In this document: piece by piece, positions 23,601 through 50,600 of the stretch
How positions within the stretch are numbered: position 1 is the first letter of the stretch
Layout: the number at the start of each line of letters is the position of its first letter
DNA from: Lytechinus pictus
Lineage: Eukaryota
Reading direction: 5' to 3'
Length of the DNA: 64,000 bases
NCBI RefSeq assembly: GCF_037042905.1
Contig: NC_087251.1
Span: 25,546,001 to 25,610,000, forward strand
Position numbers and translations under genes: made by a program
Notes under the pieces: model-generated
Databases searched by the model: none
What the model saw: the letters and a program-made list of their open reading frames with translations, nothing else
What the model was told of the DNA's origin: nothing

Positions 23601-26600
23601 ACCTCGAGTTCGTGCGACCGTCTACAACGACTGCGAGTGCTCGCAAGACACCAAGAGATCGATCGTGCAACAACAAGAAAAAACTGTTGCAGGCGGTCGT
23701 AAACTGGTCGGACGTCAATTGTGAAAGGGGCTGAACGGTCGCATACATGCGAATGCAACTGTAGTGGAATGTAGTAAGCCGTAATTTCGATCGGTCTTGC
23801 AACAGTCTCATATTATCGCACCCAGTCGCAAGACTGGTCTCTGTAGGTCTCCAACACATTTTCAAGTGTTGTACGACCTCCAGTCGACTAAATGCGACTA
23901 TACTTAGTTGTGCCACCTCTCGCACCAAGTCGTACAACGTTGAACAACACTCACACGATGATCGCCCGACCGATGGTACGACCTGTTGCGAGTGAATCAA
24001 TCGTATTTGATCGCGTTTGGATTTTGAACATGTTCAAAGTTCAGATGCGACCAGTCACGATCACCTCCGACCACTTCGAGTTTGTGCGATCGTCTACAAC
24101 GACTGCGAGTGCTCGCAAGACACCAAGGGATCGATCGTGCAACAACAAGAAAAAACTGTTGCAGGTGGTCGTAAACAGGTCGTACGTCAATTGTGAAAGG
24201 GGCTTAAGATGTTCTTACGAAAATTGTTCGAAAGTCGTTCGCACGGCATTTGAAGCCTGTCCTGATGGCATTTGTGACTCCAAGTCATTACATTTCAGAA
24301 CTTGAAAGATTCTGATCGAACAGGTATAACCCGCTACATAACCATCATGACCATGTCATCAGCTGCTTCGTACTCTTGGGTTTGGTAAAACTCACTATAC
24401 CATAGTATGACCAGGGAAATGGGACCCCTGGGATTATTATTTCATTTCGTCTAGTTTAAAATATATGTCTTGGGATTGTAATATGTGTCTTTTCAGAATC
24501 CGAAAGACTGCAGCAAGGTAAAGAAGATTTCGTGCAATATAAGAATACCGTGCGGCTATGGTTGCCAACTTCACCATGTGACTTACTGCTTGTTGGTTGC
24601 CTTTGCCACCGGGAGGACACTTGTCCTAGATTCTAAGGGTATGAAATATGCCAAGGAGGGTTTGGACAGGTACTTCCTTCCCCTCAGTGAGACGTGTCTT
24701 GACCACAACGGGAATTCAACAGGCAGATGGGGGCGTAGGTATACCATATCAATTAAAGTATAGGTCTAACGTTTCGAATGCAGATTGTAGATAAGCTGAC
24801 ATTTCTCTTTCGTGGCAGGTCAGTGTCGAGGAATAACAATTCAAATACGCGCAGTTCTTTTAAATCAAAATTTAAAATATCAATAACTATGTAAAGCCAG
24901 TGAATAATCAACATTGATAATTCGCGCTATCCGCTATGAAATTTAAAAAAAAATATTATTTGCACAATGATGGGTCAAATTTCAAATTTAGAGACTATCT
25001 TATTTCTTTCCTACCCGAGGCAGGAGGTCCCGTTGCATAAAAGTTACTATTATGGTAACTTTGCCAGGCTAATGGTAACTTTCATGGAGTCCTTAATTTT
25101 GATTGGTTGATGAGCATCGATCGTTACCAAGGTAGTTACTATTTAACGACAAAGTTAACGGGGCCCAGATGTAAGCACTCCATACCAACCACGTGCCACC
25201 GTATAGCATGGACCTATTATCTACGATATGTTGAAAAACCAGCCATGTTAATTCCAGCAATAGCGAGCTTAGGTATCACAGGCCTAAAACATTTCCCTTA
25301 GACTCGTGTGTTAAAATGGCATTTAAAAAACATTCATTAAAAAAAGGATGAAATTCAGGGGTCGAATGTTTACTACCAGCGGATAGGATTATATCTCACA
25401 ATCTAGATCTGACTAGAAAAGGGTCCCTCGACCGGCTCATTTTATAAATCCAATTCAATAATGGTTTATTAAAACGTGCCTCGCAGCCAGAGGCTGAATA
25501 AAAACATGTGTACAATTTTACAATAACAAAATAATACTTCAAGTACAAACATGAAATGAAAAATTAAATAAAATTACTAGTACTTCTTATTATAATACAG
25601 GGAAATAAATTGTTGAAAGTAAATAAAATCATACATTGTATTGAACATTATAAATATTAAGTACGCAAATTATAACCACCACAATGAGGCACATTGTACA
25701 TGCATGAATGAAAAGTATTAGAAAAGGCAAAAAGGGGAAGGATAAAGACGGCATAGGAAGACAGACAGAGAAAAGGTGAGAAAGAGGTAAGGGTAATTAA
25801 AAGGAGATATAGATAGAAAGATGAAGAAAGTAGTGGCGAAGATTAAAAACAAAAAGTATGACAACAAATTAAGTACAGAGTAGACTGAGTGGGGCAAGGC
25901 GGTATAGAATAAGGATGACTATCCTAGCAAATAAAGAAAACTATACCTATCATATCGTCGGGGGGGGGGGGTCAACAAATTTATCTAGTTCTCATTTAGT
26001 AAGTCTATGAAGTAGGGGATGGGACTATTTCGGAGTCGGCTGGTTTTGCATTTGAATTGATCATACTTAGGGATTTTCCTTAGAGAAATGTCTAGCCTTT
26101 TGGGAGGAGGGAGCCAAGTTCTGCAGTGTGGATTGATTGTGAAGGATTTAGCAAATTTTTGAGCAAGAATTTTCCGTCTAGAGTCCAGAGTTTCAAGGTT
26201 GATTGTTTTGCAAGAATTAAACAAATCGGCACTTTATAAAGCAATCTTCTGAGGGATCAAATTCATCACCTGAAACAGTAAAATAGCCCTTATCTTTCCG
26301 CCGGTCAAAACATAGTTCCAAAGTTGGTGATATATATTCCCAATTCTGGAAAAGGAAGTTCAGTAATTACCAAAAATAGAATCAGTGTTAGATGGACAAT
26401 CATATTCATACACTTTGCCAATCAGCCATATCAGAATAAAAAATGAGGGTTGGCTCGAATGAATATCTGTTGCATTTCCGATGTTAATAGGCCCGTGCAA
26501 CCCTTACCCGAGACCACCTCCATAGGTAGTCTCGGGAGTAGGACTCTGGCCGGCCCCGGACCACCTATACGCAGATGTAAACACAAATAAAAACTACCTC

Positions 26601-47600: not shown

Positions 47601-50600
47601 TTTGTGTTTATTAAGGAAAAAATGTTTTAAATACAATATTTACATTCAATTGAGGTCATAATAAACAAATAGATAAAATAAACATATAAATAAATAAAAT
47701 AATAAATAAATGACCCCCTCCCCAACAAGCTTTCTATTATTTTGCTTCTGTTGTTTTATGGTTTTTTTTCTTGAATTTTTTTGGGGGCAAGTTTCCCCCT
47801 CCCCCTCACTTCCATGCATCTTCCATCTAAAGGCTTACGTCAGTGTCCGTAGCTCATTTTAAATTTAAAAGTTATGATGACATTTCAAAAAAATACCCCC
47901 ATATGGCCAAAGATCAGTGACTTTAAATGACCTTTGACCTTAATCATGTGATCTAAAACTTGTGCAAGACGATCAGTAATACCTGAATACTGTTATTAGT
48001 GTCATTATTTTTTTCTATACGTTCAAAATTATAATGAAATTTCAAAAAACGTAACATTGGTTAAGATTTCAAGGTAGATATGACGCTGTTATATCAAAAC
48101 TGCCGTCGCCTATGCCGGAAAAGTGGCCCCCTTAGTCCTGCTCTGCTATGCAGGCGAGACAAAAATTAGGAATTGCCGTGGCAATAACCATATTTGTTTA
48201 GACTTTGATAATCCAATAACTGAAGTAAAATGTAGATTGAAAGAGTAGGTTAAAAAATGCTAATTCAATCGTTTTATTTACACATGAATGTTTTAGGATA
48301 TAGATATTCATATAAAATTAATGTTACCATGGTAACGGCGAATTAAATATCAGACCTATTTATGAATTTCCCCACAGGTAGATTTACGTTCAGCACCAAT
48401 TCATTCGCGGAAATAGCAAGAAGATCGAACTCTACAAAAGTAAACATAATCCCATATAATATCATGACGAGTATCGCACTGATTAACAGTATATAATTTA
48501 TGTGCAATATAGATGTAATATTGTGCGCTTTTTTTTTTTTTAACAGAAATGCGCATCCGATAAATGAACATTGTTATCTTTCGCATATATAACATAAAAT
48601 GATATATCTTGCATCTTATTTCAATTTTTTTCACTATAAGTGACATGACAACAATTATTATGTATTTATTAGGTTAGCGCTAAAATGGACGAAATTGAGA
48701 TGCGGAACACAAACATTATACCATTGATAGTTTTTCACAAACTTTTATTTTGAGTAAATCACGATTTTATATCTCATAGTGCCATATATATGTGTGTTAT
48801 ATTCCAAATTGAAATGTATATTTAGTAGACTTATAATTTGAAACTCCAAATATAAATAATCGCATATCAAAGGAAATCAAATTATCTTACAAATCCCGTC
48901 AAAATATCAAAATGCGTGATTTTCGACAGTCTTTCAGAATTTACGCTAAAAATGATACTTTCACGCAAAAGTGTACTTAGCATCCGCCCGTACGTTATTC
49001 CTCAGTATTTCCGCAAGATTTTTAGCTGGGATGCAAAGAATTGACATATTGTGCTATCCAAATAAAAACTCACTTTAGTGCGTACTTCTACATGTAATTA
49101 AAAACTCGCTTTAGTGTGAACTTATACATGTAATTATGTACATAATGTATGGTATTTTCAATTTTTCTTTCAAAATTCGCACCTGGTAAAATGCACATTG
49201 TCTCCTTTCGGATAACATAAAATGATATATCTTCTATCTTACTCGAAAATTCTTTTAATATTTGTGGCATTAGGACATTTACTTTACATTCGATGGATAA
49301 ACGAATTGAAATCGAAGAATTTAAGTTGCGTAAAAAACTTCAAACTATTGATAGTTTTCACAAACTTTTATTTTGAGAAAATCGCGGTTTTATGTTTCAC
49401 TGTGCCATATGTGTGTGTGTAATATTCAAATTTGAAATGCATATTTATGAAACTTATAATTTGAAACTCTGAATAAAAATAATTTCATATCAAAGATAAT
49501 CAACAATATGATGATAATCCGTCAAAATATCAAAATGCGTGATTTTCGACATTCTTTCAGATTTTACGCTAAAAATGACACTTTCACGAAAAATTGCGCT
49601 TGGCATCCGGCCGCACGCTATTCCTGGGTATTTTTGAAAGACTATTGGCTGGGATGCCAAGCATTAGCAAGCATTAACAAATTTTGCCGTCCAAAGAATA
49701 AAAAATCGTTTTGGCCGGTCTACTATTACCTTTATGTCTTGTGTACATACTTCTTAATTGAATTGAATTGAATTGAATTAAATTGTAGTCTTATTCTCGT
49801 CATAATTCATGTTCAAACAAATGTTGTCCTATATATTGATAGAAGTTGAAACATCCCTTAACTTTTTTATCATTGTTCCTCTCATCTCTTTAAGTTCATT
49901 ATGGATTTTGTTTTTTTTAATGTTATAGATACCCTGATTATGTCTTCGTTGGTGATCATTCAATAGCTAAATCGGCTGGCCTTTCATCAAGATACTCAGA
50001 CGATTCCTTACGCGGCATCATTCTTGATATCTACTTCCTTTCTCGTACTGATTTCTTTGTCGGCACATTTTCTTCGCAGGTTTGTAAAAAAAATTAATGT
50101 AGTTAAAATCATTGAAATAGATGGACTAAATTAAGGTGATTAAAATGCGGTGATCGAAGAGGGCAGGGGCATGTCTCCTCGGAAAGTATGGACACTGGAT
50201 TTAGTACTGATCACCTCTTGCAGTCACATTTTACCGAGGCTTCCAAGTGCTATAAGGATAAATTGCAATATCCAGATTAATTCTTTTCGCTTTTTTTGCT
50301 CGCTCGCAAAAAAATGTATATCTTTCAAGCTTTTTCTTCATTCTATCTTTCATATTTTTCTATTTTAACACATACCAAAGTTCGATTTTTCTTTAATAAA
50401 GAGAAGATTTTAAACACATATTAATCACTTTCCCGCTTACAATCTCCTACCTAAAACAGGTGTCTCGAGCGGTGTATGAGATGATGCAGTATTTACATGA
50501 GGAAGGTGCTTCTGCAAACTTCCGATCCCTTGATGATATTTATTTCTTCTGTGGAATGCATGGCCGCAATCAGACCGCCCTCTACGAGCACAAACCGCGT

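Follow-up and report, generated by a model that had tools for sequence, protein, structure and literature searches.

A tandem FUT8 duplicate in the sea urchin Lytechinus pictus that keeps the donor site and appears remodeled at the N-glycan acceptor site

Can a FUT8-like enzyme keep its donor site and catalytic residues and fucosylate something different from the N-glycan core? This question is raised by a gene in a 64,000-nucleotide stretch of the Lytechinus pictus genome (NC_087251.1, positions 25,546,001 to 25,610,000, forward strand; hereafter the window). FUT8 is the core alpha-1,6-fucosyltransferase of CAZy family GT23, described as a single enzyme with a strict acceptor whose human and worm forms show the same acceptor preference (PMC7033129). 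An initial annotation had placed in the window, at 24497..50570, a FUT8 paralog with an intact catalytic core and an altered acceptor-binding site. We find that the gene is an intact, spliced tandem duplicate, and we regard the chances as evenly balanced that, as its residues suggest, it encodes an active fucosyltransferase whose acceptor is not the N-glycan core. In the literature we found no report on this gene or on altered acceptor sites among FUT8 paralogs of animals, most subscription papers and supplements lying outside the coverage of the search.

A complete FUT8-like gene

The motifs of the initial annotation are where it had placed them, but the gene extends past both sides of its interval. 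It occupies 14489-50795 on the plus strand, with nine exons, GT-AG ends throughout, and an uninterrupted frame of 578 amino acids. Six-frame searches located RIP at 24542, the Asp-to-Gly change at residue 295 at 40162, HVRRTDK at 43947, TFSSQ at 50065, and YFFCGMH at 50541. The translation is identical to the RefSeq model P0137, annotated as alpha-(1,6)-fucosyltransferase-like of L. pictus, and 15 of 578 residues differ in the Lytechinus variegatus ortholog, P0138. A FUT8 catalytic domain (PF19745) and an SH3 domain (PF14604) were found by Pfam on P0001/P0002, which places the protein in the FUT8-like GT23 family. It matches the human FUT8 chain with an E value of 2.6e-187. An AlphaFold model built on a 53-sequence alignment has a mean predicted local distance difference test (pLDDT) score of 85 and, in Foldseek, a template modeling (TM) score of 0.91 to human FUT8.

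Donor residues are kept and five acceptor contacts are replaced

To number residues as in human FUT8, we used sheep FUT8 (P0050, 575 aa) as a proxy, which agrees with the numbers in PMC7033129 and with the human PDB chains. Conservation was scored over 129 other homologs of at least 440 aa (8 of 142 were shorter and were excluded; of the 134 aligned, 5 isoforms of the variant were set aside). Donor and acceptor contacts were taken from the paper on the structure of FUT8 with GDP and the G0 glycan (PMC7033129).

The donor and catalytic residues listed by the initial annotation are indeed all kept. Exon 7 (43943..44119) holds the catalytic motif intact, with H363, R365, D368, K369, the catalytic base E373, D409, and D410; exon 8 (49929..50079) holds D453, S469, and Q470; exon 9 (50460..50795) holds D494 and D495, followed by the SH3 domain with H535 and K541 and by the stop codon. 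Twelve of the 13 GDP-fucose contacts (Y220, G221, C222, and Y250, all in exon 5, and H363, R365, K369, T408, A436, V450, D453, S469, and V471) are identical; the sole change, V450I, is also found in 17 of the 129 homologs.

The substitutions that it reported are likewise real, in place, and common to L. variegatus. Exon 5 (24497..24734) carries N215R, K216I, and G217P (24542-24550), W248M (24641), and W255L (24662); exon 6 (40118..40361) carries D295G (40162-40164); and exon 9 carries Y498F, G500C, Q502M, and N503H (50541-50561). The FUT8 residue is conserved among the 129 homologs in 114 (N215), 128 (K216), 129 (G217), 128 (W248), 127 (W255), 127 (D295), 129 (Y498), 128 (G500), 128 (Q502), and 121 (N503). 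Five of the replaced residues are acceptor contacts: K216, G217, and D295, at the first N-acetylglucosamine (GlcNAc) and Asn; Y498, at the core mannose, where the change to Phe keeps the aromatic ring; and Q502, at the 6-arm. All five are unchanged in 127 of 129 homologs, the substitutions are absent from canonical invertebrate orthologs, and the five replacements are identical in L. pictus and L. variegatus. The two tryptophans had been listed with these changes, but W248 and W255 are not among the acceptor contacts in PMC7033129. Both border the Y250 donor loop and also a side channel of hydrophobic character; long alkyl chains bind in the channel formed by W248, W255, and K216 (PMC13003104).

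The remaining acceptor contacts are kept (E373, A374, Q470, D494, D495, G501, V531, and H535). The exosite for the 3-arm GlcNAc (A374, D494, D495, and H535) and the contact to the second GlcNAc (Q470) are thus as in FUT8 proper. Further changes include V370I and A375S in exon 7, C465G in exon 8 (50062), and C472S in exon 9 (50463). Both of these cysteines, which we take to be a disulfide pair, are conserved in 129 of 129 homologs; cysteines 204, 212, 218, 222, 230, and 266 are retained, and the variant therefore lacks the full cysteine set of FUT8 proper.

Are the changes concentrated at the acceptor site? Among columns conserved in at least 95% of the 129 homologs, 5 of 12 acceptor contacts are changed compared with 15 of 133 other columns (Fisher test, P = 0.013; the sites were known beforehand, so the test was not blind). 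The hydrophobic side channel showed no significant enrichment (3 of 10 conserved positions; P = 0.14). At highly conserved columns overall, the variant is changed at 21 of 160, versus 0 of 160 for the L. variegatus ortholog of the canonical copy described below. The residues suggest a protein that is FUT8-like on the donor side and departs from FUT8 on the acceptor side, and because of that departure the label of core fucosyltransferase does not suit it. K216A is reported to abolish the activity of human FUT8 on N-glycan (PMC13003104), and simulations place G217 in contact with the glycosylated Asn (PMC9161449). Our literature search yielded no mutant data for D295, Y498, or Q502. Normal core fucosylation appears unlikely for the variant because the contacts K216, G217, D295, Y498, and Q502 and the cysteines C465 and C472 are lost.

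A canonical copy in tandem and a mosaic of divergence

The initial annotation had proposed, as a test of its own reading, a search for a second, canonical FUT8 in the same genome. Such a gene lies in tandem downstream (C7:25622053-25671038), with the same nine coding exons; the canonical Lytechinus copy corresponds to P0021/P0127. This tandem copy, together with the conservation among the 129 homologs, led us to reject the possibilities that the variant is the sole FUT8 of the genome or represents ordinary invertebrate variation.

Comparison of the two copies revealed a mosaic. Exon 1 (14489..14646), which encodes the start codon, the type II membrane anchor, and the start of the stem, is 55% identical in amino acids, with a synonymous divergence (dS) of 0.68. 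Within exon 2 (16788..16906; stem), the 5' part has a dS of 0.62 and the 3' part, from about 16838, a dS of 0.08. Exon 3 (21016..21214; coiled coil) is 98% identical in DNA, and exon 4 (21735..21849; end of the coiled coil) differs at 4 of 115 nt. Over the whole segment from mid-exon 2 to the end of exon 4, which covers the distal stem and the coiled coil (residues ∼70 to 197, including a cysteine common to both copies), 7 of 77 synonymous sites differ (dS, 0.10), versus 132 of 248 in exons 5 to 9 (P = 4.5e-13); for exon 1 and early exon 2 the dS is 0.6 to 0.7. The introns cannot be aligned between the copies and differ in length by up to 25-fold, and DNA similarity stops within ∼10 bases of the splice sites. 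Exon 3 was found in the genome only in these two copies; exons 5, 6, and 7 each match at least four loci, and the SH3 exon matches at least two, these counts being lower bounds.

The same mosaic is seen in L. variegatus proteins, and an assembly artifact is rejected on this ground and because contigs of both copies in run X1 (see below) extend 76 nt into exon 4, the site of the last shared 31-mer. The simplest reading is that the coiled-coil exons were likely homogenized with the canonical copy by gene conversion confined to exons. A mosaic of homogenized and divergent parts between neighboring genes is also known from the red and green opsins, and divergence that persists beside gene conversion can mark selection for new function (PMC3924837). 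In contrast to the opsins, the introns here are unalignable, the homogenized part consists of three consecutive coding exons, and divergence extends over the entire catalytic and SH3 region instead of forming a narrow peak. In exon 7 of P0141, an older L. pictus model, we observed Thr at human position 415, a residue found elsewhere only in the canonical copy of L. pictus; it may stem from recent conversion or from a chimeric assembly.

The shared coiled coil raises another explanation: the variant could be a catalytically crippled partner that pairs with canonical FUT8 through this near-identical segment and tunes core fucosylation in certain tissues. The loss of activity in human K216A (PMC13003104) would fit such a partner, as would the facts that the homogenized residues span the coiled coil that is the dimer contact in FUT8 crystals (PMC7033129), together with the common cysteine, and that transcripts of both copies are present in run X1. 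However, both Lytechinus species retain the complete set of catalytic and donor residues, and the membrane-proximal stem, which dominates multimer formation in cells (PMC9709245), is the part that diverged between the copies (55% amino acid identity). We consider this explanation quite unlikely.

Constraint, rate, and transcription of the variant

If the variant has a function, is it under constraint? With an in-house Nei-Gojobori script, exons 5 to 9 of the two copies gave a dS of 0.94 and a nonsynonymous divergence (dN) of 0.16, a dN/dS ratio of 0.175. For the variant branch, the ratio would be ∼0.24 to 0.30, assuming equal synonymous rates. The variant thus appears accelerated yet constrained on average. 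A pseudogene was rejected by the intact frame, the GT-AG ends, the spliced contig, and the pairwise dN/dS of 0.175.

Run X1, whose RNA nature is the guess of a tool (no indexed run holding the gene is recorded as RNA), contains a 1,235-nt contig that covers exons 6, 7, and 9 of the variant without mismatch, with a GT-AG joint between exons 6 and 7 and a gap as long as exon 8. A spliced contig of the canonical copy occurs in the same run. The variant is transcribed, and its expression was low or absent in the samples of three raw RNA runs.

Several observations weigh against an active enzyme with a new acceptor. In ∼6% of each of those three runs, no read spanned the exon 6-7 junction of the variant, and eight spanned that of the canonical copy. 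Changes polarized with Strongylocentrotus purpuratus and Diadema as outgroups fall 70 times on the variant and 11 times on the canonical copy, with 20 ambiguous. Between L. pictus and L. variegatus, the variant differs at 15 of 578 residues and the canonical copy at 5 of 605 (P = 0.02), and some of these differences are at well-conserved columns (L342F, E387I, and I404F). None of the 12 conserved donor contacts is changed, which is not significant when taken alone (P = 0.37). Catalysis could suffer from the loss of W248, W255, C465, and C472, which are close to the donor site. Finally, exon 7 escaped conversion (dS, 1.3) with its protein sequence barely changed, and for this reason the mosaic is supporting and not decisive evidence for selection.

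One potential explanation for the rapid change is that the variant is a relaxed duplicate: a spare copy under weak constraint, whose core-fucosylation activity would be low or residual and which would be drifting toward loss. Its protein changed ∼6-fold faster than that of its sibling and has more interspecies differences, its expression was low or undetected in the three runs, and two older L. pictus models of the variant differ at 5 internal positions over ∼140 shared residues, which would all be expected of such a spare; moreover, no S. purpuratus counterpart of the variant was present among the best 120 of 520 matches. Against this, dN/dS is well below 1 over a dS of 0.94, the frame is intact in two species, both cysteines of the presumed pair are lost together, and the radical changes concentrate at acceptor contacts and spare the conserved donor contacts. 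A relaxed duplicate is unlikely in our view.

Relatives with altered acceptor sites

Is the pattern unique to this gene? Two further GT23 genes were found in the L. pictus genome, at G000:C2:24263400-24296000 on the minus strand (L022-L025) and at G000:C9:16138700-16181970 on the plus strand (L026-L030 and L033). Both have an intact RRTDK..E motif, Gly at 295, altered residues 215 to 217, Q470N, and loss of D495. The SH3 domain is cleanly deleted inside the last exon of both, and the coiled coil is apparently missing for the most part. Their relatives without SH3 include P0144 and P0146 of L. variegatus and P0145 and P0148 of S. purpuratus. Long branches mark the C2 and C9 genes as older than the variant, and 4-fold-site divergence is 0.61 to 0.67 between them and the variant compared with 0.48 between variant and sibling. 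Human FUT8 without its SH3 domain is inactive (PMC9709245), which makes these genes a separate puzzle. In Diadema antillarum and Diadema setosum, P0173, P0326, and P0327 represent a separate full-length FUT8 paralog with catalytic residues kept and K216, G217, D295, and Q502 lost; it shares A375S, Y498F, and the loss of C472 with the window gene. The SH3-less sea urchin genes (P0143-P0148) and the Diadema paralog (P0173/P0327) thus resemble the variant in keeping R365, D368, K369, E373, D453, and S469 and in replacing 295 and 216/217; they are annotated merely as FUT8-like and are much older than it.

A survey of the family used 150 proteins, representatives at 50% identity and hence a set biased to divergent members, in which the alignment at 295 is uncertain in distant rows. 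All tested positions are covered by 96 of the 150, and 81 of the 96 keep R365, K369, E373, D453, and S469. K216, G217, and D295 are all kept in 9 of these 81, one is changed in 15, and two or three are changed in 57, a distribution one would expect of a family that conserves its catalysis and diversifies in its acceptors. Named examples of remodeled relatives come from firefly and mussel, beside the Diadema paralog. P0171 of Aquatica leii (1,615 aa) has four FUT8-like stretches in one model, with remodeled acceptor motifs, and is probably a tandem array merged by annotation.

These data suggest that remodeling of the acceptor site around a conserved catalytic core is a recurrent event in invertebrate GT23, which makes the variant less unique and favors the idea that such copies act on other acceptors. 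The initial suggestion of a neofunctionalized enzyme with another acceptor gains partial support from the enrichment at acceptor contacts; the pattern itself is not confined to this gene.

In trees, moderate support places the variant among canonical FUT8 of camarodonts and outside the lineages of Diadema and of the SH3-less genes. The variant and the SH3-less genes fall on separate branches in free trees (85/92 support), but the approximately unbiased (AU) test did not reject a joint clade (p-AU, 0.21). For a Lytechinus-only clade, p-AU is 0.24, and the trees do not fix the placement of the variant relative to S. purpuratus FUT8.

How does the variant compare with better-known enzymes? It is 55 to 56% identical to the human FUT8 chains (PDB 6TKV, 6VLD, and 6X5R; TM, 0.91) and has the same domain order (membrane anchor, stem, coiled coil, GT-B, and SH3), all donor and catalytic residues, and the 3-arm exosite D494/D495/H535. 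It departs from FUT8 by K216I, G217P, D295G, Y498F, G500C, Q502M, W248M, W255L, C465G, and C472S and by a stem that is 15 residues shorter. Two N-glycosylation sequons (24713-24721 and 50565-50573) were gained without counterpart in the sibling, and one of them (residue 504) sits directly after the acceptor loop.

Among more distant members, NodZ (PDB 2HHC and 3SIX) has an acceptor other than the N-glycan core. Such an acceptor is also proposed for brown-algal GT23 (PMC11468063). Both have the GT23 fold and the conserved GDP-fucose site of the variant; unlike it, they lack SH3 and a close canonical sibling. Their identity to the variant is 14 to 18% (NodZ) and ∼22% (algae; PMC11468063). Membership in these SH3-less groups was rejected, the variant having an SH3 domain and nesting among sea urchin FUT8.

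A predicted acceptor

What might a fucosyltransferase with this pocket act on? As a type II enzyme of the Golgi, the variant would bind GDP-fucose through H363, R365, K369, D453, S469, and Y250, and E373 would deprotonate the acceptor hydroxyl for an inverting transfer, as in FUT8. In FUT8, D295 and K216 recognize the first GlcNAc by its acetamide and OH3, with G217 as the Asn contact; loss of D295 and K216 together with G217P would remove the demand for GlcNAc-Asn. Y498F and Q502M would loosen the grip on the mannose core and the 6-arm, while Q470, A374, D494, D495, and H535 may still read a distal N-acetylhexosamine (HexNAc). With the GlcNAc-Asn contacts lost and the distal HexNAc contacts kept, the acceptor is most likely a HexNAc-containing O-glycan or glycolipid chain, predicted to be fucosylated at a primary hydroxyl. 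Gene conversion likely homogenized the coiled-coil exons with the canonical copy while the catalytic exons stayed apart.

The host is indeed an echinoderm, as the initial annotation had supposed when it pointed to fucosylated polysaccharides, but a link to fucans found no support. Under such a link, the variant would synthesize sulfated fucan or branch fucan in the body wall or the egg jelly. Against this, a fucan enzyme would need a changed linkage, because O6 is absent from fucose. The distal HexNAc contacts are also kept, fucans are more widespread than the variant appears to be, and the ∼79 GT10 genes per echinoderm genome are more obvious candidates (PMC11468063). In its favor, fucan synthesis is the role proposed for brown-algal GT23 proteins, in which the donor site is conserved and the acceptor site altered, the average echinoderm genome has 4 GT23 genes (PMC11468063), and PMC13380512 cites work on a sulfated fucan from L. 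variegatus; none of the candidate fucan synthases is characterized (PMC13380512). We consider a fucan enzyme very improbable. Sea urchin eggs hold fucosylated glycolipids with alpha-1,3 links (PMC3528131).

A broader and speculative idea, which we think unlikely to hold in full, is that FUT8 outside the vertebrates has several jobs. Repeated duplication and pocket rebuilding in invertebrates would have produced hidden fucosyltransferases for glycolipids, O-glycans, or fucans. The Lytechinus copy would be a young case with its parent still next to it. K216I, W248M, and W255L would make its channel favorable to lipids, conversion would hold its coiled coil identical to that of canonical FUT8 and so allow the two to pair, and the specificity switch would come down to some five substitutions.

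A natural sibling with 76% identity to a canonical ortholog, its changes mapped on a solved pocket, makes a specificity switch in GT23 directly testable. L. pictus is a laboratory sea urchin in which expression mapping and knockout are feasible. The variant could yield a new fucosylation catalyst or lead to a sea urchin glycan so far without a linked enzyme, and many database entries named alpha-1,6-fucosyltransferase-like probably have no role in core fucosylation.

Other observations

An intron of the SH3-less gene on C9 contains, in the region L004:690-1034 on the minus strand, an open frame of 344 aa that by eye resembles the nucleic-acid-binding ORF1 (first open reading frame) of non-long-terminal-repeat retrotransposons. 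No tRNA gene was called within the window by ARAGORN; a tRNA-like repeat at 46820-47001, in intron 7 of the variant, has many RNA-read matches from other loci and was not called as a tRNA gene. A 76-nt stretch within the seventh intron of the canonical copy (L031:4037-4113) attracts RNA reads by the tens of thousands, with a strand bias and with continuations into other sequence; it had no Rfam match and is a fragment of some very abundant RNA. The 3' untranslated region of the canonical copy is apparently at least 2 kb long, being covered by contigs and stranded reads at L031:5000-7500.

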